Of a stretch of 64,000 nt of DNA, positions 35,599 through 49,706 are shown piece by piece. This DNA comes from Ignavibacteriota bacterium. GTDB lineage: Bacteria; Bacteroidota; Ignavibacteria; UBA10030. The stretch is taken from assembly GCA_963769605.1 (NCBI GenBank), contig CAVYML010000003.1, positions 158,305 to 222,304 of the forward strand. Reading direction: 5' to 3'. The notes beneath the pieces were generated by a model. It ran no database searches, was not told the DNA's origin, and was given only the letters and a program-made list of their open reading frames with translations. The position numbers and the translations under genes are program-made. Positions within the stretch are counted from its first letter, which is position 1; the number at the start of each line of letters is the position of its first letter.

Positions 35599-36426
35599 TT
35601 AATAAAACTTATGGAATCCGCTGAAAAAGATGTTAACTACGGTCATCGAGAAAATGGCGACAACAAATCCGAGAATAGCTACGATCATCATTTTCCGTCC
35701 CTTAAAATTTCGTACTGCCGGAGCAACGGCCAAAAAGCCGTAGAGAATCCATATGATGACGGTGCCGATTAATTTCGGATCGTAGGAATATATGTTTGCA
35801 TATACGTGGTGAAGCCAGATAATTCCGAATGTTATTGCGCATCCGAGAATGACGAATGCAAGACGGATAGCGGTGACTGCCATGCGTTCGATGGTTTCCA
35901 GTGTAGGGAGTTTTTTGTAAATAACACCGAAACGCGTTGCCTTCATCTCGTGATACAGCATAAGGTAGAGGAAGCCGTATGAGCCTGCAATTGTGACAGC
36001 CGCATAGCCGAGTAAAGCCGCGGTGACGTGAAGACCGAAGAAAAGACTGCGCAAAATTTCAGGAACCTGCGGGGAGTCTTTGATAAAAAGAGACGATGCG
36101 AGTTGAAAAAAAAACGCGATATTTAAAATAAAATAACCGGTTTCCGCATGCTGCGCGCGCAGTTCGATCACCAGATAGGTTAATGCGACAGAGAAGGCGA
36201 GGACGGAAAAAATCTCAAAGAGATTGGTGACCGGCGGATGTGAAAAGGCAACCGCACGGAGAAGCAGGTATGTTAGATGGAGCGCGATGATAAAGGCGAG
36301 GAGCGGCGTTTTAATTCTTTGTGCCCACTTAATGTCGGAAAAAAACGCTCTCCCGTACGTTCCGACAAGAAGAAAATAAAACACCGGTAAAAGAATCTTC
36401 AGGATATCAATGATAAATGCCGTCAC
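35599..36426 (-). CDS. polytopic membrane protein, HemX/CcsA-family-like (cytochrome c assembly protein family)
   Basis: 275 aa with about 8 transmembrane helices, placed immediately upstream of hemA as hemX is in Bacillus. No WWD motif was seen, so family assignment is tentative. Confidence 0.4.
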   Translation of the reverse strand: MTAFIIDILKILLPVFYFLLVGTYGRAFFSDIKWAQRIKTPLLAFIIALHLTYLLLRAVAFSHPPVTNLFEIFSVLAFSVALTYLVIELRAQHAETGYFILNIAFFFQLASSLFIKDSPQVPEILRSLFFGLHVTAALLGYAAVTIAGSYGFLYLMLYHEMKATRFGVIYKKLPTLETIERMAVTAIRLAFVILGCAITFGIIWLHHVYANIYSYDPKLIGTVIIWILYGFLAVAPAVRNFKGRKMMIVAILGFVVAIFSMTVVNIFFSGFHKFY

Positions 36427-36515
36427 ATCAAAAAAGTAGCGAAAATGGCGGGAAAATACAAGTGGTGAGAAAAGAACAAATACTTAATGAATTTCGAAAA
36501 AACGCAAGAACTTTT

Positions 36516-37529
36516 CTATTCTTCTTTCATCCATTCCCGAACAAAAAGCCCGGTTGGAGTCATGTTTTCCCACCGGCAGTTTGCACAGCTTTCCGGCTGT
36601 AAGCTTGCGGATGTTTCCTTTTTATCGACATAGCTGTAATTGCACCAACTGATCCGCACGGTATCGTTGTAAATGGCGTGCATTCTCAGAGCTTCCATAA
36701 ATTTTTCAGCGGTGGGAAAATTGACTACTCCGTTTCCCGAACTTTCGCACGGACCCCATTCCGTTACGAACACGGGAATCCGATGTATGTGCTCGAAAAA
36801 GATCGGAAAAAGATAGCTGTGTGTTGCTGCATAGAAGTGGAATGTATACATCACATTTTTCCGGTCGACTAATTTGGAAGGATCGACCTGATTGAGGTTC
36901 TGACACCAATTAGGTGTGCCGACCAAAATAACCGCATCCGGTGCATTTTTATGAATAATCGGTATGATGCGGTTCGCATAAAATGCAATAGTGTCCCAGC
37001 CAATGCCGCTGCCGCTCGGCTCGTTGCAAATTTCATACAGGACATGCTTTTTCGATGCATACTTCTTAGACATCTCGTCAAAGAACGGAGCGGCGCCTGA
37101 ATATTCCTTGTCATTGGGATTTCCGATTCGCAAAATGTGCCAATCGATGATGCAGTATATTCCCAGCTTTTCGCTCCAGCAGACTACGCTGTCGATGATC
37201 GCTTTGTTGAACTGTGGATCGAGATTATAGTCCCGTTTGTTGCCGTAATCGGCAACGTACAACGCCGCTCTCACCACTGTGCCTCCCCAAAAATCGCGGA
37301 TTGATTTCAGCGCATCGTATGTAATGCATTGAGGATAGTGCATAATGCCGGATGTGCTGAAACCCTTTAGCTGCACAGGTTTCCCGGATTCGCCGCACAA
37401 TTGTATTCCTTTCACCTGCAATGCCCCGTTCTTTTGAACGAACGATTGGGAGAATGCCGGTATGGCGCAGCAAAGAAATAGATAAGTGATAAGATACTGT
37501 TTCATAAATCTTTTTTGCAAATATTTCAT
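36516..37529 (-). CDS. glycoside hydrolase family 5 endoglucanase (cellulase)
   Basis: A signal peptide and GH5 motifs are present, including the catalytic NEP (ICNEPSG) and a W/H-rich beta/alpha-barrel. The start is placed at the internal Met (MKYLQKRF…) to avoid a 170 bp overlap with the upstream gene. Confidence 0.75.
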   Translation of the reverse strand: MKYLQKRFMKQYLITYLFLCCAIPAFSQSFVQKNGALQVKGIQLCGESGKPVQLKGFSTSGIMHYPQCITYDALKSIRDFWGGTVVRAALYVADYGNKRDYNLDPQFNKAIIDSVVCWSEKLGIYCIIDWHILRIGNPNDKEYSGAAPFFDEMSKKYASKKHVLYEICNEPSGSGIGWDTIAFYANRIIPIIHKNAPDAVILVGTPNWCQNLNQVDPSKLVDRKNVMYTFHFYAATHSYLFPIFFEHIHRIPVFVTEWGPCESSGNGVVNFPTAEKFMEALRMHAIYNDTVRISWCNYSYVDKKETSASLQPESCANCRWENMTPTGLFVREWMKEE

Positions 37530-37560
37530 GGTTTCAAAAGCCGTACCGGACAAGCCGGAA

Positions 37561-38889
37561 TCAATATGGAAAAAGCTCGACCGATTTATAATAAACTTCT
37601 GCGCCTTCCGACTGGAGCAAAATTTTTCCTTTTGTGACGGAAGTTTTCGTGCCGGTGTTGACAAGGTGTCCGTTGACATAATGCTCCGTATGTTCGCCGT
37701 TGCATAGTATCTCCATGGTGTTCCATTCACCTGTCGGATTTTCGAAATTTTCCGTGCGGAAAATACGTTTCATACCCCATTCAATATCGGATTTATTGGG
37801 AGACTCGACCATCGTCCCCACGCACCATGTATCGCCGCAATCGCTTTCCTGAACCTGGCACTCGATCGATTTGGGCCAGAGCGTGTCTTTTTCTCCGTTT
37901 TCGAAGTAATATAAAATGCCGCTGTCGCGTTTGCCTTTTTCCCGCGGTGGGTATTGTTTTTCACCCCATTTGAAAACCACCCTGAGATAAAAATGGTCGA
38001 AAGATTTTTCCGTACAGAGATATCCGAATCGTTTTCCTTCGATGTGAAGAATGCCGTTGCGGAAGGAAAAAATTTTATCCGGATCGTTCCTTGTACCGAG
38101 AGTATCGAGATATGTATACCATCCCTTAAAATTGCTGCCTGCCAAGAGTTCTTCTTTATTGATTTCTCTGATCCAGATATTCCGGAAGGAAACGGGATTG
38201 CCGTGTTCCTGCAGAAGCAAGGGCTGCTGAAAAGCATGGTATGTGTATTTAGGCTGTCCAATATAAACCGTAGCTCCTTTAATTTCTGTATGATTCTGTA
38301 TCAGGACGCCGTTCTGGAGAACGGTCACATACGCCGGAGTTCGCACTGTGCTGTCCGGATTAAAACGCGGCGCTGTGTAGATGATATCGTATCTTTGCCA
38401 TTCGCCCGGTTTCCGCGATGCATTGACGAGTGGAATGCTCTGCTTATAAATGGAGCCGGCCTGACCGTTGGAATAGGTCGGATTGTTGTAGCTGTCCAGG
38501 ACCTGAATTTCATAGCGGCTCTGAAGATATACGCCGCTGTTGCCGCGTCCCTGTCCATCGCCGGTGACGACAGACGGAGAGCGCCACTCGACATGCAATT
38601 GGCAGTCTGAAAATCGTTTAATTGTTTGTATCGATCCGCTTCCGGGTTTAACGGAGAGTATTCCATCGGCTACATCCCAGCCTGCGGGACTTCCGTTCTC
38701 GGCTGTCCATCCGTCGAGATTTTTACCGTTAAAAAGAATGATTGCATCGACCGGCGGCTGAGTACCGTTTCCCGGAGTTACGACTGGCGGAACGGGATCC
38801 CAGACTTCAGTTAATTTGGGATCGTCCTGAGCAAATATATTCCATGAGCCAAGAAGGCAAAGAAAGAGGATGAATTTTTGTGTTTTCAT
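37561..38889 (-). CDS. DUF1080 (3-keto-disaccharide hydrolase-like, LamG-fold) tandem-domain secreted protein
   Basis: A signal peptide is followed by two tandem ~200 aa repeats with DUF1080 hallmarks (GW..…NSG.YL…E.Q.LD…EW…). Confidence 0.65.
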   Translation of the reverse strand: MKTQKFILFLCLLGSWNIFAQDDPKLTEVWDPVPPVVTPGNGTQPPVDAIILFNGKNLDGWTAENGSPAGWDVADGILSVKPGSGSIQTIKRFSDCQLHVEWRSPSVVTGDGQGRGNSGVYLQSRYEIQVLDSYNNPTYSNGQAGSIYKQSIPLVNASRKPGEWQRYDIIYTAPRFNPDSTVRTPAYVTVLQNGVLIQNHTEIKGATVYIGQPKYTYHAFQQPLLLQEHGNPVSFRNIWIREINKEELLAGSNFKGWYTYLDTLGTRNDPDKIFSFRNGILHIEGKRFGYLCTEKSFDHFYLRVVFKWGEKQYPPREKGKRDSGILYYFENGEKDTLWPKSIECQVQESDCGDTWCVGTMVESPNKSDIEWGMKRIFRTENFENPTGEWNTMEILCNGEHTEHYVNGHLVNTGTKTSVTKGKILLQSEGAEVYYKSVELFPY

Positions 38890-39003
38890 AATCGATCCTG
38901 TTATTTTTTTATATCCGGTGAATTCCGGGTTTCAGAGCTGCATCGAGAATTCTGTGAAGGATGTCCGGATACTGTATCTAAAAATTGTCGATGCCGGTAC
39001 GAA

Positions 39004-39372
39004 TTAATTTCTAAAAATAAAATATACGGCAAGAACAAGAAAAAGGAAACCGACGGCATGATTCCAGCGCAAGGTTTCATTTTTAAAAACCAGAATCGTG
39101 AATCCCGTAAAGACGAGCAATGTAATAACCTCCTGAAGAACCTTAAGCTGAACTAAAGAAAACGGTCCTCCGTAATTTTTAAATCCGATTCTGTTTGCCG
39201 GTACCTGAAAACAATATTCGAAAAAGGCGATTCCCCAGCTAATAAAAATGATGGAGACGATGCCCAATTTATTGAACCATTTCATCTCGCCGAACTTCAG
39301 ATGGCCGTACCATGCCAGAGTCATAAATGTGTTGGAAATAGCAAGAAATCCTATGGTTATCATTTCTCTCAT
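39004..39372 (-). CDS. small integral membrane protein (DMT-superfamily-like, DUF486-type)
   Basis: 122 aa with four hydrophobic helices. Confidence 0.45.
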   Translation of the reverse strand: MREMITIGFLAISNTFMTLAWYGHLKFGEMKWFNKLGIVSIIFISWGIAFFEYCFQVPANRIGFKNYGGPFSLVQLKVLQEVITLLVFTGFTILVFKNETLRWNHAVGFLFLVLAVYFIFRN

Positions 39373-39698
39373 ACTGTTTCTACCCTTCGGTTTCGTGTAT
39401 CACCGTACAATGCGCATGGAATACAGGGAATCACTTACATGCCGGAAATGCTGTAATAATTGTACGTATCTTCGCAAGGAAATGCAACCCGCCGTAAGAG
39501 ATCTGCATGGATCAATCTTTTACACATGAAAAAGCGCAGCATTAAGTATTCCATCGGCTCTATACATGCCGATTCATCCTTTGAGGTGATAATGTTATTC
39601 TCCGTACCGATAGAAGTCTTTGTTTTTTCACTATAGAAACAAGCGAATTTTGATTATTATGGAACATTAATTTTGCACGGAGTGTTAGCTTTTCATAA

Positions 39699-39706
39699 GA
39701 AATAGT
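39699..39706. repeat. 8 bp target-site duplication GAAATAGT (left)
   Basis: Identical octamer abuts the right terminal inverted repeat at 43246-43253. Confidence 0.8.
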
Positions 39707-39775
39707 GGTAGTGTCTCAGTTTGAAATTAGGAAAAATAACATTATCATTAAATAAAGATTTATAAGGGTAATGTT

Positions 39776-40111
39776 ATGCCTAACGGGACACCGAAATTAG
39801 TATTTAATTATATCAAAACAGGGAATTATCGATCATATTATGCAAATGGTGTTTTTGGTGGTCTAATGCCAAAAGGCGAATTGCAAATGGATTTTTTTAT
39901 TGAAAGGCGAGTTATACCTCAGACTGTGGCATATGAGATATCAAAAGATGGGCATCTTGCAAAAGAGATTGAGGTCAAAGGTAAGGAAGGACTTGTAAGA
40001 GAAATCGAATGTGGAGTTGTAATGGATATAGAAGCTGCACAAGCGTTTCATCAATGGCTTGGACAAAAAATTGAAGAATTAAAAAAAATTCGAGCAGCAA
40101 TAAAGGCATAA
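39776..40111 (+). CDS. hypothetical protein (transposon cargo)
   Basis: 111 aa, AT-rich codon usage. It is the first gene of a three-gene overlapping operon and has no recognised domain. Confidence 0.45.
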   Translation: MPNGTPKLVFNYIKTGNYRSYYANGVFGGLMPKGELQMDFFIERRVIPQTVAYEISKDGHLAKEIEVKGKEGLVREIECGVVMDIEAAQAFHQWLGQKIEELKKIRAAIKA

Positions 40112-40114
40112 ATT

Positions 40115-40567
40115 ATGGATTGTCTTCTTAACAAATTGAGTGCTACTTCTTCTAAAATAAAATTTGAACATCGAGCAAGTAGTGGCAGTTTTACATTTCC
40201 ATCTGTGTTTATAGCGATATTGAATTCCAGTGAATATCACATATCGTATTTATTGGGAAATGAATATGATGCTTCGGGTTTAAATGAAGAAGTTGTCGAA
40301 ATAAAACATCTTATAAATTTTAATTACTCGTTAAAAAAACCAATAATCGTTAAAATAAAAAGAAACGGTGATGAGTATATAGGTGATATACCAGAGCTGG
40401 AAATTTATAGTTTCGGAAGTGACAAATTCGAGGTGTTAAGGAATATCAACGAAGAAATCACAGAATTGTTTGAAATGTTGATCAAAATTAATGACGATAA
40501 ACTTGGGAAGCATCCCAAAAATTGGAAAAAGACCTTGAATGAGTTTGTAAGTTTTAATGAAAATTAA
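40115..40567 (+). CDS. hypothetical protein with C-terminal HicB-like (UPF0150, RNase H-fold antitoxin) region
   Basis: 150 aa. The segment KIKRNGDEYIGDIPELEIYSFGSDKFEVLRNINEEITELFE resembles the HicB N-domain pattern (…dg.yva.vPel.g…G.t.eEal.n..eai). Confidence 0.4.
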   Translation: MDCLLNKLSATSSKIKFEHRASSGSFTFPSVFIAILNSSEYHISYLLGNEYDASGLNEEVVEIKHLINFNYSLKKPIIVKIKRNGDEYIGDIPELEIYSFGSDKFEVLRNINEEITELFEMLIKINDDKLGKHPKNWKKTLNEFVSFNEN

Positions 40568-40844
40568 AGACTTTAAAGAAAATGAAATTAGGGCAACTAT
40601 TCTCAACAAAGCCAACCTTGGTAAAATAAATAAAAAAACGCCGCATTGGAAGGGATATATTTATTGTGGGGATATTTTAGTGGCAAAAGTAAAAATTCCA
40701 AATGATCACCAAAGAATAATGCATGAGAGTAAATCAAAATATATAGCCAGAGACTTACGTCTTTCTAATGATGAATTTAATGCTTTTAATGAATGTACGT
40801 TTACCTCTAAGAATTTTTCTGATAGAATGCGCACTCTCGTATAA
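40557..40844 (+). CDS. hypothetical protein, possible HicA/YcfA-like mRNA interferase
   Basis: 95 aa. The segment KTPHWKGYIY…VKIPNDHQRIM…IARDLRLSNDEF loosely matches HicA (GSHH…tvPhH…ilkqagls.eeF). It overlaps the upstream gene by 11 bp. Confidence 0.3.
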   Translation: MKIKDFKENEIRATILNKANLGKINKKTPHWKGYIYCGDILVAKVKIPNDHQRIMHESKSKYIARDLRLSNDEFNAFNECTFTSKNFSDRMRTLV

Positions 40845-40851
40845 TATAATT

Positions 40852-41703
40852 TTAACAATCTATTAACCTCGCCAAATCTTCTATCGACCAAAGTTTATTA
40901 GTAATTCCTGCCGCCATTGCTGGAGTGATGCGAAGCGTTTTATGAATTCTCACGAAATTGTAATACATGAAATGCAATGCTATTGCGTGAGCATGATTTT
41001 CAACTTTTTTTGAGAATGCGTTTGTTAAACGTATGAACCTACATAAAGACATTCTCATAGTCAAGTTTTGACGTTCAACGTAACTTGTTGAAACATGCTT
41101 TAGTTTGGGGTCTCCGGTTACGACTGTTTTCTTAGCTCCAGTGCATTCTGCCGGACTGTATCTATGCTCACCTTCAAGGGAATTGCCATATAGCTTCACA
41201 AGCTGAGCATAGTCGATGTCAATTCCAAAGGTCTGATCGACCGCCTCTAAATATGCTTTTAAGCCGTCTGTAGTCATTTGCACGCGGTTCTTTAAACGTG
41301 AAGCAACGTCTTCCATGAATATCTTTGCATACTCCGCATCACGATTTCCGACAAGCCATGAAATCATAAGCTTTGAATCTGCATCGATTGCCGTCCAAGT
41401 CCAGACGCTTCCAAGACCGTATTTTCCTTGAAGTTTTTCAGGAAGGTTTTTATCTTTGGCATAAACGAAACTCCAAATTTCATCGCATTGCACACGTTTA
41501 GAAGCTACATTCCGGACGTGTTCATCGTGATACTTTTGGCAAGCTGTTCCTAAGTCAACGAGAAGCTTTGTAACCGTATTAATGGAAACATTCGCAAGGC
41601 GGGAGATAGAGCGGAGACTATTTCCTTCTACGAGCATTCCGATTATCTGAGTTTGTTTTTCTATTGGAAGTCTGTTCATTGTCTTATCTCTCTCTTTGTT
41701 CAC
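40852..41703 (-). CDS. IS1-family transposase (single-ORF type)
   Basis: 283 aa with an N-terminal HTH. The C-terminal [46 protein letters not shown] matches the IS1 InsB C-terminal signature (ER.NL..R..L.RL.R…FSK..E.H…I…..YN). Confidence 0.7.
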
Positions 41704-41916
41704 TTACAATATATGACATTATACTTGACCTGTCAAGCATAAAATGTAGTTTAATGAAAAATTAATGTTTGGATTTAATTGAGGAAATACCTACTTTAGA
41801 GGCGGAATAGGCCACCTTTCGGTGGCGGGTCTATAGTAGTTTAAGCACGTTACTCATAAGACCTTTCCTTTCGCCTAAATGAATCACCCTGTATGATTCA
41901 TTTGATGTTGAGATTA

Positions 41917-41958
41917 ACCGCAATCTACCTTGATCGGGTACAAGATTGCGGTTTTTTT
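41917..41958 (+). terminator. intrinsic terminator-like hairpin inside the transposon
   Basis: A 10 bp perfect stem (accgcaatct / agattgcggt) with a 17 nt loop is followed by TTTTTTT. No + strand gene lies immediately upstream. Confidence 0.5.
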
Positions 41959-42212
41959 ATGTCTAAATCTGAGTTAAATATAAGGGGAAAGGTCTAAAAA
42001 CGTAAGAAATGTTGTTTTCGGCAAACCGAAAGGTTACTTTCGCTTTACCGAAAGGTTACTTTCGGTCAAGTTTATTGGCTTTATTCCATACACGAAAACG
42101 GACAATATAACTATCAAAAGCATTTGGTTCTATATCACCGGGATATTCTTTGACAAGTCTATCGTACACAAGTACTTGATTTTTTTCTTCACTCCATAGT
42201 TCCCTAAATCTC

Positions 42213-42791
42213 TTATGATGGAAGTCTTGATACTTTAGATTTGGTGCATAGTGCCGGGAAATTTTCTTTCTTTCTTTCAATCTTTTTATGCCATTTTTTA
42301 AATTTACTATTGGATGAATTTTTATGTTTTATACCCCTATTATTATGATTTGCGACTATTTCTTCTATCGAGTTAGCAATCCTGTCTTGAATTATCCGAT
42401 TTAAAATCTCTATGGGAGGATATTTTAAATGTGCTTGTTCCTTTTGTAATTTCTCCCATAGTTCACGTTGACGGCGCAACGAAGAAAGGCTAACAATATC
42501 CAGACGATCTCTATATCGATTTGCCTTGATTTCATTGCAATGTTCGATCAATTGGTTGTCGTCATTTCCGAAAAACCAAGATATAATAGTATCATTAATT
42601 TTCTCTGGTTGGGTTTCTGAAAATCTCTGAAGTTCGTTATGCTCATTTACAAACCATGACGACCAATATCCATCAATTGACCCATCTTCATGATGGCTTA
42701 TTTTATTAAAATATCGGAATGGAACAAAATCACCAACGAATAAACCGTTTTCTTTTGCTCTTTCTATCCAATCTAAATCTGGTTTAACCAT
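42213..42791 (-). CDS. hypothetical protein (transposon cargo)
   Basis: 192 aa with no recognised domain. Confidence 0.4.
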   Translation of the reverse strand: MVKPDLDWIERAKENGLFVGDFVPFRYFNKISHHEDGSIDGYWSSWFVNEHNELQRFSETQPEKINDTIISWFFGNDDNQLIEHCNEIKANRYRDRLDIVSLSSLRRQRELWEKLQKEQAHLKYPPIEILNRIIQDRIANSIEEIVANHNNRGIKHKNSSNSKFKKWHKKIERKKENFPALCTKSKVSRLPS

Positions 42792-42924
42792 TTTTTAATA
42801 TAAAAAATCCCTCTCGTGCCTTAGAACAGACCGAATGTCTGCCCTCGCTGATGTACAGCGAACGAGAAGGATTTTTAAAATTCTTATTTCACACGTCTAA
42901 GGCGGCGTATGACTTGCTGAATAT

Positions 42925-43170
42925 TTAGACTTTTTTAGACTTGTTTTTCCACCTTGCTTTTGCGGCGTTTTGTGCTATCTTTGATCTCTTGGACTTGGAA
43001 AGAGATTTAGCACGGGCGATACCGCCTTTTAGTCCCCCCAGCCGTCCAAGTGCAACGGCGGCGGGGTTTCGTGTATCTTCAATGACGGGTTCAGTGGTTT
43101 GCCCGGTCGCAAGGTCAACAATGGACTTTGCAAGCTGGTTTGGGTCTCTTGGTCTTTTAGGCTTTTCCAT
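42925..43170 (-). CDS. small basic protein (KGG-repeat-like, possible nucleic-acid binding)
   Basis: 81 aa and lysine-rich, with a GRLGGLKGGIARAKSLSKSKRSKIAQNAAKARW motif. Confidence 0.4.
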   Translation of the reverse strand: MEKPKRPRDPNQLAKSIVDLATGQTTEPVIEDTRNPAAVALGRLGGLKGGIARAKSLSKSKRSKIAQNAAKARWKNKSKKV

Positions 43171-43227
43171 GCCTCAAATATACAAAGGCTTTCTTATCCG
43201 GTCAAGCATAATCGGGAAGGTTAAAAA

Positions 43228-43245
43228 TCAAACTGAGACACTACC
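43228..43245. repeat. right 18 bp terminal inverted repeat of the IS1-family transposon, followed by the 8 bp target duplication at 43246-43253
   Basis: tcaaactgagacactacc is the exact reverse complement of 39707-39724. Confidence 0.85.
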
Positions 43246-43334
43246 GAAATAGTTCAAACATTGCGTTTCGATTATGAGATAGGTATATTTTTTATAGGCT
43301 ATTCTTCCGGGCACAATTTTCTGAAAGGTCTGAT

Positions 43335-44720
43335 ATGCAATCCATCCTCGATTTTATCGAAGCAAATCATGAACGATATCTTGCAGAACTCAAAGAACTC
43401 CTGTCGATTCCCAGTGTAAGCTCGCAGACTGAGCGCAAGGCGGAAATGCGGCGCACGGCGGAATGGCTGCAAAATCATTTGCAGGCAATCGGATTGCAGA
43501 ACGTTCAGATTCTGGAAACAGCGGGTCATCCTGCCGTGTATGCGGATTGGCTGAATGCTCCCGGCACACCGACGCTTCTTATATACGGTCATTACGATGT
43601 CCAGCCGGAAGATCCTCTCGACGAATGGAAAACTCCTCCGTTTGAAGCGACCATACGCGACGGCAATCTTTATGCCCGTGGCGCTGCGGACGATAAGGGT
43701 CAGATTTTTATTCACATGAAAGCGATCGAAGCATTTTTGAAAAACGGCGGAACGCTTCCTACAAATATCAAAATCATTTTCGAGGGAGAAGAAGAAATCG
43801 GAAGCGAAAGTCTTCCGGCTTTGATCGAAGCCCGCAAAGAATTGCTCAAATGCGATTTGATCGTCATTTCGGATTCCGATATATTCGAAAGAGGAGTTCC
43901 TTCGGTTACGTACAGTCTTCGCGGCCTTAGTTATGTGGAAGTGGAAGTGATCGGCCCGAATACCGACCTGCATTCCGGATCGTTCGGAGGTTCGGTGCAT
44001 AATCCTATTCAGGCCCTTGCAGAAATGATTGCCTCGCTGCATGAGAAAAACGGCCGCATAACGGTCAAAGGATTTTATGACAACGTGCGTCCCGTGTCCA
44101 AAGCCGAACGTGCCGCATTCAAGAAGCTGCCGTGGAAAGACCGGGCTTATGCCAAGAAACTTGGATTGAAGCAGTTGTACGGCGAAAAAGGATATACAAC
44201 GCTCGAGCGTCTCTGGGTGCGCCCGACGCTCGAATGCAACGGAATCTGGGGAGGATATACCGGAGAGGGAGCCAAGACCGTTCTTCCGGCGCGCGCATTT
44301 GCAAAAATTTCCATGCGGTTAGTGCCGAATCAGGATTCTAAAAAAATCGGAAAATTGTTCGAAAAACATTTTAAAGCCATTGCGCCGAAGACGGTGCAGG
44401 TAAAAGTAAAAGTGCTTCACGGCGGTGAACCGGCTATTACGCCCATCGACAGCCCCGGTGTAAAAACGGCCGTTGCAGCGCTGGAAAAAGGATTCGGCAA
44501 AAAACCGCTGTACCAGGGAGAAGGCGGCTCTATTCCCATCGTTGTCGATTTTAAAAAATTGCTCAAGGCAGATTCGGTTCTGCTCGGATTCGGACTGCCG
44601 GACGAAAATGCCCATGCGCCGAACGAATTCATCAGTCTCGATAATTTCTTCGCCGGTATCCGTACCTGTGTGCACTTTTACAGGGAGCTGCCGGATTACT
44701 GGAAGAAGGGAAAAAAATAA
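43335..44720 (+). CDS. M20-family dipeptidase (PepV/ArgE/DapE-like metallohydrolase)
   Basis: Metal-ligand motifs HYDVQP and RGAADDKGQ are present with a dimerisation domain. Length is 461 aa. Confidence 0.8.
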   Translation: MQSILDFIEANHERYLAELKELLSIPSVSSQTERKAEMRRTAEWLQNHLQAIGLQNVQILETAGHPAVYADWLNAPGTPTLLIYGHYDVQPEDPLDEWKTPPFEATIRDGNLYARGAADDKGQIFIHMKAIEAFLKNGGTLPTNIKIIFEGEEEIGSESLPALIEARKELLKCDLIVISDSDIFERGVPSVTYSLRGLSYVEVEVIGPNTDLHSGSFGGSVHNPIQALAEMIASLHEKNGRITVKGFYDNVRPVSKAERAAFKKLPWKDRAYAKKLGLKQLYGEKGYTTLERLWVRPTLECNGIWGGYTGEGAKTVLPARAFAKISMRLVPNQDSKKIGKLFEKHFKAIAPKTVQVKVKVLHGGEPAITPIDSPGVKTAVAALEKGFGKKPLYQGEGGSIPIVVDFKKLLKADSVLLGFGLPDENAHAPNEFISLDNFFAGIRTCVHFYRELPDYWKKGKK

Positions 44721-44726
44721 AAAAGT

Positions 44727-45626
44727 ATGATTCAGAAAGAGACGTTATTAAAGATTTCAATTTTTCAGTCGTTATCCGAGGGCGATCTGGAATTATTGTC
44801 CAAATTATGGACGGTACGGTTGTTAAAAAAATCCGAAGTGCTCTTTCGGAAAGGAGACAGCGCATCGTCGATGTTCGTTATCGACGAAGGCGAAATTGAA
44901 ATCTTAGTGCCCGATCACAGCGGTCATAAAGAAATTCGCGTTTCCCTTTTAAAAGAAGGAGATTTTTTCGGCGAACTTTCGCTCATCGTAGGGTCGCCGC
45001 GGACTGCAACGGCTGCAGTGATGAAAGATTGCCGTCTGCTGGAAATGGACAGGGGCGAATTTGTCAAATTTCTTTCCGAACGCCCGGCTGTAGCAATTTC
45101 AATGATCAGCGAAATCGGCAGACGCCTTCGCGCGACAAACGATCTTGTGACGTCGCTCGCATCCAAGAACGTCAACGTGGAGATGGACGAGCGGCTGAGT
45201 TTTGGCGACCGGCTTGCCGATAAGACGGAAAAATTTGTCGGCAGCTGGACGTTTATGATCTGGTTTATGGGATTTCTCGGATTATGGGTGATCTTCAATG
45301 CCGTGCAATGGCTGTTTTCTCCGTTCGATGCATATCCGTATGTGTTCCTCAATTTGGTACTCGCAGTTGTTTCCTCTTTGCAGGCGCCGTTGATTATGAT
45401 GAGCCAAAATCGCGCGCAGACGAAAGACCGCCTGCGGGCGGAACTGGATTATCAGGTGAACCTTAAATCCGAATTAATGCTTCAGCAATTGCATGAAAAG
45501 ATCGATGAGATTCGATCGGTAGAATTGCAGATCATGCAAAAGGCGCTTCAGGAACATTTGGAACGGATCCGGAAAGATGCCGGGTCGGCAGAATCTTCCA
45601 TTCCATCAGGCGCTAACAAACCTTGA
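44727..45626 (+). CDS. cyclic nucleotide-binding domain protein with C-terminal DUF1003 membrane domain
   Basis: The N-terminal cNMP-binding fold (GDFFGELSLI…RTATAAV) is followed by a DUF1003-like two-helix segment (WTFMIWFMGFLGLWVIFNAV…QAPLIMMSQNRA). Confidence 0.7.
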   Translation: MIQKETLLKISIFQSLSEGDLELLSKLWTVRLLKKSEVLFRKGDSASSMFVIDEGEIEILVPDHSGHKEIRVSLLKEGDFFGELSLIVGSPRTATAAVMKDCRLLEMDRGEFVKFLSERPAVAISMISEIGRRLRATNDLVTSLASKNVNVEMDERLSFGDRLADKTEKFVGSWTFMIWFMGFLGLWVIFNAVQWLFSPFDAYPYVFLNLVLAVVSSLQAPLIMMSQNRAQTKDRLRAELDYQVNLKSELMLQQLHEKIDEIRSVELQIMQKALQEHLERIRKDAGSAESSIPSGANKP

Positions 45627-46168
45627 AGATTTATACGAAGACAGGCGATGAAGGGGAAACTTCCCTCTTCGGAGGCAGGCGGGTACCGAAGTTTTCACTG
45701 CGCATTGAAACGTACGGTACGGCAGACGAATTGAATTCGCAAATCGGCGTTATTCGTTCCTTAAAACCGAAACCGGAAATCGATACACTTCTTGAAAAAC
45801 TTCAGTCCGATCTTTTTATTCTTGGCACGGATCTCGCAACACCGGTTCAGGAACGGGAAGCGGCTCGAGTCCGGCGCATCGAATCAGGGCATATAGCGTT
45901 TCTTGAAGATACAATCGATCGAATAGAGGAGCATTTGCCTGTCTTACATTCTTTTGTGCTGCCCGGAGGTTCAGCGGTTGCTGCACAGATCCACGCGGCG
46001 CGAACGATTTGCCGCAGATGCGAGCGGCTCGCCGTAAGATTGGAAAAAGAGGAACAAATCGGAAAACTTCCTTTGATTTTTCTCAATCGCCTTTCAGATT
46101 TTCTTTTTGTTCTGGCGCGCTATGCCAATCTGCTGGACGGCGTTTCCGAAACAATCTGGAAGCCGTAG
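45623..46168 (+). CDS. ATP:cob(I)alamin adenosyltransferase, PduO/MMAB type
   Basis: The N-terminus MKIYTKTGDEGETSLFGGRRVPK is the PduO-type signature. Confidence 0.85.
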   Translation: MKIYTKTGDEGETSLFGGRRVPKFSLRIETYGTADELNSQIGVIRSLKPKPEIDTLLEKLQSDLFILGTDLATPVQEREAARVRRIESGHIAFLEDTIDRIEEHLPVLHSFVLPGGSAVAAQIHAARTICRRCERLAVRLEKEEQIGKLPLIFLNRLSDFLFVLARYANLLDGVSETIWKP

Positions 46169-46529: not shown

Positions 46530-49500
46530 ATGTTAAAAGAATTTCTTACAAAAATTGCAAGTACAACTGCGCAAGGAGACGCCCGTGAAGAAAGTTATTA
46601 CGGACACTTCTCCAATTTTCTGGAATCGTACGCGGAGGAAACGGGCAAGAAACATATTCAGATAACTACGCTTCCTAAAAAAACCGAAGCAGGAAATCCG
46701 GACTTTCGTGTTTGGGATGGCAGGCAAAAAGTGGTCGGCTATATCGAGGCGAAAAAACCGGGCGAGAATCTCGATATCATAGAAGATTCCGAACAGCTTA
46801 AGCGCTACCGTTCTACGTTCCCAAATCTCATACTTACGGATTTTTACGAATACCGTTTGTACCGCAATGGAGATCTGCTCGACAAAGTTTTTATCGGCCG
46901 GCAGTTTATAGCAAAGAAATTAAAAACCGTTCCTCCTGTTGAGAATGAAGAAAAATTCCTTACACTGCTGGAAAAGTTCTTTTCCTTCTCGCTGCCGAAG
47001 GTTTTCACGGCGGAAAATCTTGCTGTAGAACTGGCAAAGCGCACCGGTTTTTTGCGCGATGAAGTAGTGGTAAAAGAACTGGAAGAACAGGAACAGGGCA
47101 AGGGAGCTATTTTCGGTTTCTATACTGCGTTCAAGCAATATCTCGTTTCCGATCTTTCGCAAAAAGATTTTGCGGACATCTATTCCCAGACAATTACATA
47201 CGGTCTCTTTGCCGCGCGAACGAAGGCAAACGGCGAATTCAACCGCCGCCTTGCTTACGATCTTATTCCGCATACCATCGGCATTCTGCGGGATGTTTTC
47301 AGTTTTATATCGCTCGGCAAACTTCCGCAGCAGATGGAAGTCATTATCGACGACATTGCGGAAGTTCTTCATGCCGCCGATGTGAACAAGATTTTAGATG
47401 AATATTACAGGAAAGGAAAAGGGGAAGATCCGATTGTTCATTTCTACGAAACTTTTCTGAATATATATGATCCGAACACACGGGAAAAGCGAGGCGTGTA
47501 TTATACGCCGGAACCGGTCGTTAAGTATATCGTCCGGGCTATTCACGATCTGCTCAAAACACATTTCGATTTGCCGGACGGTCTGGCAAGTAAGGAATTG
47601 ACATTGCTCGATCCCGCAGGCGGAACACTCACGTTTCCTGCGGAGGCAATCAAGCTGGCGGTGGAAGAATTTGTCGGAAAATACGGCGATGCGGGGAAAA
47701 CAAAGCTGATCAAAGATCAGATTCTAAAAAACTTTTACGCGTTCGAGCTCATGATGGCTCCCTATGCCATCGGGCATATTAAGATCAGTTTTTTGCTCGA
47801 AGAGCTCGGCTACACCATGCAGGAAGACGACCGCTTTAAGCTTTACCTGACCAACACGCTGGACATGGAAGACTTAAAGCAAACGGAAATTCCGGGGCTC
47901 GAATCTCTGAGCGATGAGAATCATCTTGCCGGTCAGATAAAACAAAAAGAACCGATACTTGTTATACTTGGCAACCCGCCGTACAGTGGCCATTCTGCAA
48001 ACAGCAACGATTGGACTGAGCGATTATTAAAAGAAGATATTGACGGTGCAACAAGTTATTATACCGTCGATGGACAACCGCTCGGTGAGAAAAATCCTAA
48101 GTGGCTGCAAGATGATTATGTTAAATTCCTTCGGTTTGCACAGTGGAAAATTCATAAAGCCGGGCAGGGTATCGTAGGAATGATTACCAACCACAGTTAT
48201 CTGGATAATCCTACATTCCGCGGAATGCGTCAAAGCTTGATGAAGACATATAACGAGATTTACATCATCGATCTGCATGGCAATTCTCTGAAAAAAGAAA
48301 CAACTGTCGACGGCGGTAAGGATGAAAATGTTTTTGACATACAGCAGGGAACGGCGATCGCAATTCTTGTAAAGAATAAAAATGGAAAAGGATGCAAAGC
48401 TTACCATCGAGATATTTATGGTTTGCGGGAAGAAAAATATGATTGGCTGGAGAAAAAAGCATTTAAGAAAAAGGATTACGAGACTTTGGATCCAAGGTCT
48501 CCATGGTACTTTTTGAAGCAAAGCAATACGGAAGCCATAGAACATTACAATGGATGGTTGAAAATAACTGAAATCTTTCCTGTAAATAGTGTTGGAGTCG
48601 TTACAGCGCGGGATGATTTTGCAGTTTCATTTAATAAGGAAGCGCTTGAAGGTAGAATAAGACAATTCCGAAATCTTAAGTTTGACGCGGAATTTCTAAA
48701 ATCCGCTTATAATCTAAAAAGCTCAGGAACATGGGATTTAGATAAAGCGAGGCAAGAATTAGCAAAAGATGAAAACTATGATGAGTATTACAATCGAATA
48801 TTATATCGTCCGTTTGATGCGCGATTTATCTATTATTGCGATACAGTAATTGAGAGAATGCGATTTGATGTTATGCAGCATATGCTCAAACCAAATATTG
48901 GTATAATAACAGTACGTAAAGCACCGCCGAATAGTTTGTGTAACTACTTCTTTGTATCAGAAAATATGATAAGCAATGGAGCTATTCGATCAGATAACCA
49001 AAGCATCGATACTTTTTTTCCACTCTATCTCTACGAAACCGAGCAAAAGAAAAAGCACGGTGCAATTTCCACGATGATGTTGTTCGAGTCGGCTCCGGAA
49101 TACGGCAAGTCAAAATCCCAAAGGGACAGGGGCAAAAAAGCAAATATAGCACAGGCGCTCTTTGAGCAATTGAAAAACGCTTATAGTAAAGTCCCGACGC
49201 CGGAACAAATTCTGAGCTATTGTTATGCCGTCTTATACAGCAACATCTACCGCGAAAAATATGCAGAGTTTTTGAAGATCGATTTCCCGCGCATTCCGTT
49301 CACAAAAAATCACGAACTGTTCCTGCAAATGGCGGAGATGGGATCGGAATTAACGGAGCTGCATCTGCTTAAGCATAAAGCATTGAACAATCCGGTTGTA
49401 AAATATCGCGGCAGGGGAACGGATGATACGATCAGAAAGATAAAGTATGATGAACAGAATAACCGTCTCTATATAAATGAAGAACGTTATTTTGAAGATG

Positions 49501-49706
49501 TTACCAAAGAGCTCTATGAATATCAAATAGGCGGTTATAAGGTCATCGAACATTACCTCAAGGATCGCAAAGACCGGCAGATCGGCGAGGATGTACGGCA
49601 GATTTGTAAAATTTCAACCGCACTTGCCAAAACTATTGAAGTCCAAACGGAAATAGATGCTCTTTTTAAAAAGGTTGAAAAAGGGAAAATCCTTGATAAA
49701 AGCTAA
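46530..49706 (+). CDS. type IIG/IIL restriction-modification enzyme (fused PD-(D/E)xK endonuclease and N6-adenine methyltransferase, MmeI/Eco57I-like)
   Basis: 1058 aa. The N-terminal nuclease motif is PDFRV…VVGYIEAKK (D…EAK). A central gamma-class methyltransferase carries LGNPPYSG (NPPY). The AT-richer C-terminal ~350 aa are consistent with a target recognition domain. No helicase motifs are present. Confidence 0.7.
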   Translation: MLKEFLTKIASTTAQGDAREESYYGHFSNFLESYAEETGKKHIQITTLPKKTEAGNPDFRVWDGRQKVVGYIEAKKPGENLDIIEDSEQLKRYRSTFPNLILTDFYEYRLYRNGDLLDKVFIGRQFIAKKLKTVPPVENEEKFLTLLEKFFSFSLPKVFTAENLAVELAKRTGFLRDEVVVKELEEQEQGKGAIFGFYTAFKQYLVSDLSQKDFADIYSQTITYGLFAARTKANGEFNRRLAYDLIPHTIGILRDVFSFISLGKLPQQMEVIIDDIAEVLHAADVNKILDEYYRKGKGEDPIVHFYETFLNIYDPNTREKRGVYYTPEPVVKYIVRAIHDLLKTHFDLPDGLASKELTLLDPAGGTLTFPAEAIKLAVEEFVGKYGDAGKTKLIKDQILKNFYAFELMMAPYAIGHIKISFLLEELGYTMQEDDRFKLYLTNTLDMEDLKQTEIPGLESLSDENHLAGQIKQKEPILVILGNPPYSGHSANSNDWTERLLKEDIDGATSYYTVDGQPLGEKNPKWLQDDYVKFLRFAQWKIHKAGQGIVGMITNHSYLDNPTFRGMRQSLMKTYNEIYIIDLHGNSLKKETTVDGGKDENVFDIQQGTAIAILVKNKNGKGCKAYHRDIYGLREEKYDWLEKKAFKKKDYETLDPRSPWYFLKQSNTEAIEHYNGWLKITEIFPVNSVGVVTARDDFAVSFNKEALEGRIRQFRNLKFDAEFLKSAYNLKSSGTWDLDKARQELAKDENYDEYYNRILYRPFDARFIYYCDTVIERMRFDVMQHMLKPNIGIITVRKAPPNSLCNYFFVSENMISNGAIRSDNQSIDTFFPLYLYETEQKKKHGAISTMMLFESAPEYGKSKSQRDRGKKANIAQALFEQLKNAYSKVPTPEQILSYCYAVLYSNIYREKYAEFLKIDFPRIPFTKNHELFLQMAEMGSELTELHLLKHKALNNPVVKYRGRGTDDTIRKIKYDEQNNRLYINEERYFEDVTKELYEYQIGGYKVIEHYLKDRKDRQIGEDVRQICKISTALAKTIEVQTEIDALFKKVEKGKILDKS

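Follow-up and report, generated by a model that had tools for sequence, protein, structure and literature searches.

The insertion sequence (IS) IS1, of which IS1A of Escherichia coli was used here for comparison, is 768 bp in length, carries no passenger genes, and has a -1 frameshift between insA and insB as well as a zinc finger in InsA. Its target duplications are of 8 to 9 bp, the ISfinder consensus for IS1 ends is GGnnnTG, and subgroups with a single open reading frame (ORF) are recognised by ISfinder within IS1. Members that carry additional genes are known in several IS families, including IS1595 and the ISMhu11 group of IS1. Such derivatives with passenger genes are termed transporter IS (tIS) (PMC9330008, PMC7986276), and Tn3 transposons also carry passengers, of the toxin-antitoxin (TA) type (PMC9330008). 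We analyzed a 3,539-bp element in a stretch of 64,000 nucleotides (the window, positions 158,305 to 222,304 of contig CAVYML010000003.1, assembly GCA_963769605.1, Ignavibacteriota bacterium), the host of which is a Bacteroidota metagenome-assembled genome (MAG) according to the protein names in the M20 cluster described below. We consider it likely, with good confidence, that this element is a tIS unit transposon moved by a single-ORF transposase distantly related to that of IS1, with a core of two genes (the transposase and a small gene, here termed c0) and two cargo slots.

Similarly to IS1A, the window element encodes a transposase with the same three DDE catalytic motifs and a helix-turn-helix (HTH) before the catalytic domain, and it has ends that start with GGT, a promoter at or beside the transposase-binding end and a target duplication of 8 bp. 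By contrast to IS1, its transposase is a single ORF that lacks a CxxC motif, is longer by some 45 residues in the interval from the second D to the E and extends further at its C-terminus, and the 3.5-kb element includes cargo and an extra, unrelated small core gene. With tIS it has in common a single transposase, IS-type repeats, a target duplication and unrelated genes inside the repeats. A preliminary description of the window had likewise called it a cargo-carrying rather than a plain IS, which is borne out by the unrelated genes on both sides of the transposase and by the finding that the whole 3,539 bp, with the cargo ORFs inside the repeats, is missing from empty sites in relatives. The wider family of such elements is comparable to Tn3 and Tn7-like transposons as a vehicle for TA and anti-phage genes with modular, quickly exchanged passengers, whereas the machinery of those transposons is unrelated and much larger; the elements described here are minimal, 2-6.5 kb in size, encode a transposase of 275 aa, and have neither a resolvase nor targeting proteins. 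Family cargo also has matches to RmrA/RmrT, SocA_Panacea, HigB/Gp49 and Fic, a likeness to the RosmerTA, Panacea and HigBA systems. In the window, a 150-aa protein with a HicB/PHD-like antitoxin fold, followed by a small overlapping ORF, recalls HicAB and other type II TA systems, although the module has three genes and its 95-aa and 111-aa proteins match no known family.

Cargo-carrying IS as such are known, whereas an obligatory c0, a two-slot layout and a bias to defence and TA genes may be undescribed. No paper was found in the literature on a tIS family with an obligatory far-end small gene, two slots and TA or defence cargo, and a full-text literature search found none on 'ISMhu11'. That these elements make up an undescribed, cross-phylum set of IS1-like shuttles for TA and defence genes, in which c0 would be a new accessory factor or regulator at the repeats or at ATGCTTGAC and cassettes would be exchanged in two slots, is a broader proposal that we advance tentatively and regard as somewhat doubtful. 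In this genome, the element amounts to a well-preserved insertion of an ordinary kind, by which a dipeptidase gene gained four or five strain-specific genes as neighbours. The family, if dominated by TA and defence genes, would be among the smallest vehicles for horizontal defence-gene movement; its variable slots are a useful place to seek new defence or TA systems, and c0 is an experimentally tractable puzzle in transposition biology.

Element ends and empty sites in relatives

The element lies between a DMT_6 (DUF486) membrane gene and an M20 dipeptidase gene. Its boundaries, as determined by sequence reading and a repeat finder, are the following.

39699-39706, no strand: left copy of the target-site duplication, GAAATAGT (sequence and repeat finder)
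39707-39728, plus strand: terminal inverted repeat at the slot-2 end, with a perfect 18-bp core, GGTAGTGTCTCAGTTTGA, and a family consensus that reaches GGTAGTGnnTCAGTTTGAAATT
43228-43245, minus strand: terminal inverted repeat on the c0 side (sequence, repeat finder and shuffles)
43246-43253, no strand: right copy of the target-site duplication, GAAATAGT (sequence and empty-site comparison)

The two 18-bp arms are perfect inverted repeats, as the arm at 39707-39724 reads GGTAGTGTCTCAGTTTGA and that at 43228-43245 is its exact reverse complement, with 3,503 nt between the arms and GAAATAGT abutting the outer side of both. When up to 3 mismatches were allowed, the 18-mer was found at 2 sites in the 64-kb window, both of which are the element ends, and 2 such matches were obtained in 0/100 dinucleotide shuffles. 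The 8-bp duplication and perfect 18-bp inverted repeats about 3.5 kb apart that had been noted in the preliminary description were thus confirmed. Both ends read GGTAGTG, and the GGT start is kept across the family. The AT-richer interior was also confirmed, GC content being 0.362 in the element versus 0.437 in the remaining window. Within the element GC was uneven (0.45 in the c0 block, 0.41 in the transposase and 0.31-0.34 in the cargo slots), and the low overall value comes from the cargo, the conserved blocks being at 0.41-0.45.

Relatives with an empty site were found through close homologues of the M20 protein, by use of a 90%-identity cluster that included proteins of other contigs. Contigs L092-L099, which encode two of the M20 cluster proteins, have the same gene order as the window flanks, with genes for a cellulase, a 3-keto-disaccharide hydrolase and DMT_6 shared on the left side and genes for M20, a cNMP-binding protein and a cobalamin adenosyltransferase shared on the right. 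In the Bacteroidota relatives L092-L096, the DMT_6-M20 intergenic region is an uninterrupted stretch of about 419 bp that aligns end to end with the window flanks joined via one copy of the 8-mer, and it reads AGAAGTCA at the position of the window GAAATAGT, i.e., a single, diverged counterpart. By BLAST, synteny with the empty-site contigs extended over 36002-39668 and 43261-46167 (86-89% identity), with no match to the element in between. Since relatives with the same gene order hold an uninterrupted 419-bp region with a single counterpart of the 8-mer, the 3,539-bp segment is a true insertion, and the empty sites in related genomes for which the preliminary description had suggested a search do exist. 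In JGI metagenomes, the reconstructed empty site had no exact match.

The right duplication is separated by 81 bp from the M20 ATG (43335), and the DMT_6 gene start (39363/39372) is about 335 bp away, distances that had been given correctly before (about 80 and 335 bp). The accompanying suggestion that the insertion may perturb both promoters found no support. The 71 bp immediately 5' of the M20 ATG were found to be identical in the window and the empty-site contigs, and the element lies about 10 bp further upstream; since it lies outside this conserved block, the core M20 promoter is probably intact. In addition, no outward-facing promoter was called in the element region by promoter consensus scan.

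The transposase, c0 and the element family

The core of the element consists of two genes on the same strand.

40852-41679, minus strand: transposase, a single ORF of 275 aa from its ATG (alternative GTG start at 41703), with an N-terminal HTH and an IS1-type DDE domain
42925-43170, minus strand: core gene c0, encoding an 81-aa basic protein with three predicted helices; it adjoins one repeat and reads inward

The transposase was matched by Pfam PF03400 (DDE_Tnp_IS1) with 28.8 bits, compared to a gathering score of 24.1, over residues 204-244 alone, and a precomputed PF03400 match was present in most of 120 listed homologues. The NCBIfam IS1 model (NF033558) scored 67.6 bits (E 1.4e-18) and was the best IS family by more than 30 bits. 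When the window transposase was aligned by MAFFT with authentic IS1A InsB (L104) and six relatives, the first D (CDEIW/MDEQW) and the second D (TTDG..Y/MTDG..Y) both aligned with IS1A InsB, as did the E motif, which is followed by FSK.VE.H. No inactivating substitution of the D, D or E was seen in this alignment, and no zinc-finger CxxC motif was present in the transposase N-terminus. By BLASTP against IS1A, the E-motif region was 41% identical (E 2e-6). Homologues of the transposase exceed 8,000 (at least 8,000 in the protein database) and are labelled IS1 family by JGI and NCBI, the PGAP name being 'IS1 family transposase'. Weaker matches were to the Pfam model DDE_Tnp_IS240/IS6 (25.0 bits; gathering score 27), the NCBIfam IS6 model (32.4 bits) and rve/IS481, while no IS1595 model was among the NCBIfam or Pfam matches at E <= 0.1. 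Taken together, these comparisons identify the predicted protein as a distant single-ORF relative of the IS1 family. The single-ORF IS1-type transposase of the preliminary description was upheld by the Pfam match, the best NCBIfam family and the D/D/E alignment, yet as a distant IS1 relative only. A classical insA/insB frameshift organization in an element of 0.7-1.2 kb was not found, the element having a single 275-aa ORF in 3,539 bp; as single-ORF IS1 subgroups are recognised by ISfinder, neither this ORF structure nor the size excludes IS1 membership.

Relatives of the element were collected by a scan of one genome per species, in which at least 588 genomic relatives of the transposase were confirmed; 80 genomic loci were taken and both ends could be placed in 68 of these (the complete elements). 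An independent set was obtained from IMG/VR, where 80 loci (L110-L189) were fetched of 139 transposase relatives on viral-classed contigs, giving 57 complete elements. The hosts include Bacteroidota, Ignavibacteria, Alpha-, Beta-, Gamma- and Deltaproteobacteria, Acidobacteriota, Nitrospirota, Cyanobacteria, Planctomycetota and others, and transposase identities are 58-86%. The terminal 18-mer was found to be near-invariant across the family, with the exact window 18-mer at 57 of 136 ends, and a perfect 8-bp duplication flanked 62 of the 68 complete elements. Element sizes ranged from 2,066 to 6,490 bp (median 3,258, n=68), the upstream repeat was always at least 909 bp from the transposase start (n=68), and an ORF of at least 90 aa was present in the cargo slots of 65/67 complete elements. 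When the ORFs of the 68 elements were clustered, only two protein families were universal, the transposase and the c0 protein of about 80 aa. The layout of the family is a repeat, the small protein, slot 1, a conserved palindromic promoter, the transposase, an optional slot 2 and the other repeat.

The c0 gene was found in 68/68 complete elements, in each case beside a repeat and reading inward. In 67 of these it shares the strand of the transposase and occupies the end distal to it; L020, where it occurs at the opposite end, still has it reading inward. It was likewise detected in 54 of the 57 complete IMG/VR elements, mostly starting 57-100 nt from the end. Homologues of c0 numbered 7,959 at E <= 0.001 and have two conserved segments, KRPRDxNQLAKxIVDLATGE and NPAAVALGRLGGLKGGKARAxxLSxxxRSEIAxxAAKARW. 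AlphaFold2 (36 sequences) predicted helices at residues 10-22, 36-56 and 59-80, with a mean pLDDT of 83. No Pfam or NCBIfam family was matched by c0, nor was a significant PDB match obtained by sequence profile or Foldseek; its C-terminus matched phrog_2384 (positions 8-40), the sole PHROGs match among the element ORFs. These results reveal c0 to be a universally conserved core gene of the family and not cargo. As c0 is basic and helical, adjoins an end in a fixed position and is invariably linked to the transposase, it is most likely a DNA-binding accessory or regulatory factor. The preliminary description had counted five cargo ORFs on both sides of the transposase; passengers are indeed found on both sides, while the 81-aa ORF among the five is this core gene, which leaves four or five passengers.

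The C-terminal motif of c0 (GGxARAxxLTxxxRxEIAxxAAxARW) was also observed as the N-terminal segment of P63C-domain cargo proteins of 350-400 aa (L014, L064, L069 and L085), and P63C-domain proteins with such a c0-like N-terminus are cargo in five elements.

Three sister elements from the same study (L100, L101 and L102) match the window element in two blocks only, with no similarity in either slot. The block of repeat, c0 and terminator (about 450 bp) is 93.5-96.5% identical, and the transposase block (about 1,000 bp) is 88-89% identical. The sister at L101 5525-7829 is decayed: its small core gene is present twice in tandem, and its transposase is truncated to 191 aa.

Cargo slots, proposed mechanism and alternatives

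Slot 1 is located between the c0 terminator and the transposase promoter, and slot 2 spans the interval from the transposase stop to the second repeat. In the window, their contents are the following.

42056-42791, minus strand: slot-1 cargo, a 192-aa ORF (42213-42791) and an overlapping 74-aa ORF (42056-42280) in different frames
39776-40111, plus strand: slot-2 gene 1, 111 aa, with weak DUF3467-like similarity
40115-40567, plus strand: slot-2 gene 2, 150 aa, with a HicB/PHD-like antitoxin fold in C-terminal residues 57-147 (matches weak)
40557-40844, plus strand: slot-2 gene 3, 95 aa, candidate toxin, overlapping gene 2 by 11 nt

The 150-aa protein of slot 2 has 345 homologues, and 10 of 53 homologues matched PF12910 (PHD_like). 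Its profile matched PDB 3k6q (E 0.0014), which carries an annotation as antitoxin in a putative TA system, and also 2yzt; the same two structures were the top Foldseek matches of the AlphaFold2 model, in which pLDDT exceeds 95 for residues 57-147. A homologue of the 95-aa protein is directly downstream of 150-aa homologues in L105-L107 (51-58% identity), and a homologue of the 111-aa protein (48-52%) is upstream of the 150-aa homologues where the contig is long enough, being first in the same triad at 48% identity in L107 and 52% in L106. PDB profile searches with the 95-aa and 111-aa proteins gave noise only, and PADLOC returned 0 matches for all seven element ORFs at E <= 0.1. The 111-150-95 triad is thus a conserved module, probably of a TA-like kind.

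In slot 1, the 192-aa ORF begins about 10 nt after the c0 terminator and overlaps the 74-aa ORF by 68 nt around an A/G-rich run (approximately 42255-42285); the two may represent a single frameshifted gene of about 240 aa. The 192-aa ORF was also called in two independent assemblies (L001 and L002), and its protein had no homologue besides itself and no family match. In the window and the three sisters alike, 5-15 nt separate the T-run of the c0 terminator from the start of the slot-1 gene, which is encoded on the same strand, and the slot-1 genes of this sister clade may be expressed by read-through of that terminator. At the inner end of the slot (42025-42070), two tandem 22-nt units, each with the hairpin ACCGAAAGGTTACTTTCGGT, lie over the stop codon of the 74-aa ORF.

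A census of cargo across the family covered 150 ORFs. The most frequent assignments were HTH_3 (23), Peptidase_M78 (17) and the PADLOC model RmrA, the RosmerTA antitoxin (up to 13), with RmrT in 4. P63C (5), SocA_Panacea (4), SDH protease (3), Gp49 (3), Abi_2 (3), HigB-like (2), Fic/SoFic (2) and AAA_21/AAA_15 (2) were also represented, together with a single NotI plus methylase, a single GmrSD and occasional nested IS genes. PADLOC matches in the cargo of relatives included RmrA, RmrT, PD-Lambda-2_B and SoFic, and the recurrent cargo clusters were HTH plus M78-peptidase, the SDH-type ClpP-like protease, Abi_2, an AbiEii-like ATPase and Panacea antitoxins. In a copy on an Acidiphilium plasmid, slot 2 holds an annotated RES-Xre pair. 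The assignable cargo of the family is thus dominated by TA and anti-phage genes.

An apparent in-situ exchange of cargo at the window site (L003, GCA_049288255.1, JBAQHJ010000402.1, 1-2719) was considered and rejected, as this is most likely a chimeric MAG contig. It joins the M20 flank and a window-type end to an interior 99.6% identical to L102, an element at another locus. In the shared c0 block it differs from the window at 5 positions and from L102 at 11, and the sum equals the 16 mismatches that separate the window from L102 there, as expected of a chimera with its crossover in this block. Separately, the short-read Logan contigs L004, L005, L090 and L091 (ERR11523654 and ERR11523656) were observed to run into the element from both flanks and to break off after about 50 nt at the right end and about 360 nt at the left, which is consistent with several related elements confusing the assembly in both runs.

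Based on these features, the following mechanism is proposed. The DDE transposase would bind the terminal repeats of about 22 bp (GGTAGTGnnTCAGTTTGAAATT) and cut at the GG termini. The ends would then be joined to a target cut with an 8-bp stagger, and repair would yield the GAAATAGT duplication in the DMT_6-M20 intergenic region. Transcription of c0 would run inward, starting from a promoter located some 40-70 bp interior to one of the repeats, and the c0 product may serve as an accessory or regulatory factor that does a job like that of IS1 InsA without homology to it, acting at the ATGCTTGAC promoter-operator or at the repeats. The slot-2 operon (111, 150 and 95 aa) would help to retain the element by acting as a module of the toxin-antitoxin, addiction or abortive-infection type.

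Several observations weigh against the assignment to a tIS of the IS1 family with TA-like cargo. The transposase scores under the curated NCBIfam cut-off for IS1 (67.6 vs 100 bits), and BLASTP aligns it to IS1A in the E-motif region only. For c0, no homologue of known function was detectable, and its role in transposition rests on linkage and position. The window cargo has no significant PADLOC, Pfam or NCBIfam match, the 95-aa candidate toxin matches no known family, and the antitoxin-fold matches of the 150-aa protein are weak (Foldseek E about 0.3; PDB profile E 0.0014). The missed cut-off and the weaker IS6/IS240 and rve/IS481 matches would also suit an element of another DDE family (IS6, IS481 or IS1595) that merely resembles IS1, as would the C-terminal motif of the transposase, which is of a type that occurs in several DDE families. 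Such an origin appears quite unlikely, as IS1 is the best model in both Pfam and NCBIfam (more than 30 bits ahead in the latter), no IS1595 match was listed, all three catalytic motifs align with IS1A InsB, the GGT-start ends and 8-bp duplication suit IS1, and the source databases call the homologues IS1 family. Were all five non-transposase ORFs interchangeable passengers, with no second core gene, one could understand why the 81-aa protein has neither a Pfam or NCBIfam family nor a recognisable transposition domain and why one record calls a c0 homologue 'histone H1'. The presence of c0 in 68/68 and 54/57 elements, adjacent to the repeat and inward while every other ORF varies, and the greater conservation of its block among sisters (93.5-96.5% vs 88-89% for the transposase block) render this very improbable. 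The preliminary description had also named the finding by which it would be refuted, i.e., that the repeats and the 8-mer are a palindromic intergenic repeat family, or a product of chance, unconnected with transposition. Many short chance repeats are present in the region, and nothing was found in favour of this scenario. Its likelihood is close to nil and it was ruled out in practice, as the 18-mer occurs only twice in the window, a count reached in 0/100 shuffles, the same repeats bracket a homologous transposase in 68/80 genomic and 57/80 IMG/VR loci (mostly with 8-bp duplications), and relatives have empty sites.

A further point against the main assignment is that only one copy of the exact element is on record, at one locus, so that its current mobility is unproven. 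The exact 275-aa transposase was not found on look-up, as a later start had been chosen by the gene callers; the resulting 261-aa version is on record at this locus only. A single known copy at a single locus would be expected of an immobile relic that is kept for its cargo, i.e., a fossil insertion and not an active transposon, and so would the 4-12% divergence (rather than identity) of the same-sample sisters, the clear decay of the L101 sister and the possible frameshift in the slot-1 gene. By contrast, the perfect 18-bp repeats and 8-bp duplication, and a full-length transposase of which residues 1-274 align with relatives, speak against this, and the site is empty in the L093 relatives with flanks that are 86-89% identical. 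The insertion thus post-dates the split from the L093 relatives, and we judge a relic to be unlikely.

Regulatory sequences and neighbouring genes

Promoters were called by consensus match only, with a score out of 12. These sites and the non-coding features of the element are the following.

43205-43177, minus strand: c0 promoter, TTGACC-17-TATATT, 10/12 (promoter region 43177-43211)
41736-41708, minus strand: transposase promoter, TTGACA-17-TATATT, 11/12, the best in the region; overlaps the palindrome CTTGACCTGTCAAG (promoter region 41708-41742)
39721-39748, plus strand: promoter-like site, TTGAAA-16-TATCAT, 10/12; begins in the repeat and points to the three-gene cargo operon
41873-41745, no strand: non-coding block upstream of the transposase promoter, conserved with sisters L100-L102 only (about 89%), with the hairpin GGCCACCTTTCGGTGGC
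41918-41960, plus strand: strong hairpin and U7 terminator, on the opposite strand to the transposase, at the inner edge of slot 1
42876-42802, minus strand: c0 terminator-like hairpin and T-run; the block conserved with L100-L102 ends here

The two minus-strand promoters rank highest among the promoter-like sites of the region and have a common motif, TTATGCTTGAC (direct repeat D5). In most elements of the family, a box of the form AAACTGA..ATGCTTGAC-n-(T)CAAGCAT precedes the transposase, and its AAACTGA resembles the inner half of the terminal repeat (TCAAACTGA). In about 15 family elements, the motif ATGCTTGA also occurs upstream of c0, at a distance of about 36 nt inward from the repeat. 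It is plausible that the transposase or c0 binds the box for autoregulation, with ATGCTTGAC..GTCAAGCAT as the candidate operator.

On the plus strand, the non-coding 190-nt stretch at 41770-41962, of which the hairpin and U7 at 41918-41960 form the end, folds unusually well (-60.3 kcal/mol, z -3.9), and a hairpin with a T-tail is present on the same strand and in the same place, in its own version, in each of the three sisters. This stretch may encode a small RNA that is transcribed divergently from the palindromic operator, and such an RNA might take part in control. No promoter was called and no Rfam family was matched for a small RNA at 41770-41962. A crude terminator scan of the 68 elements gave 7 antisense versus 5 sense hits, which lends no support to a family-wide divergent small RNA, although the scan was a weak test, having also missed the hairpin of the window. 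Over 39000-44000, Rfam (E <= 1) gave a chance snoRNA match only, and ARAGORN detected no tRNA or tmRNA.

Beyond the element, synteny with the empty-site relatives stops at 46167, before an ORF of 1,058 aa on the plus strand (46530-49706). The counterpart of this ORF on the near-identical contig L001 matched the Pfam families N6_Mtase and Eco57I (both weakly) and Type_ISP_C, and the product looks like a Type ISP restriction-modification enzyme. Located about 3 kb from the transposon, the 46530-49706 region appears to represent another strain-specific insertion of the defence type.

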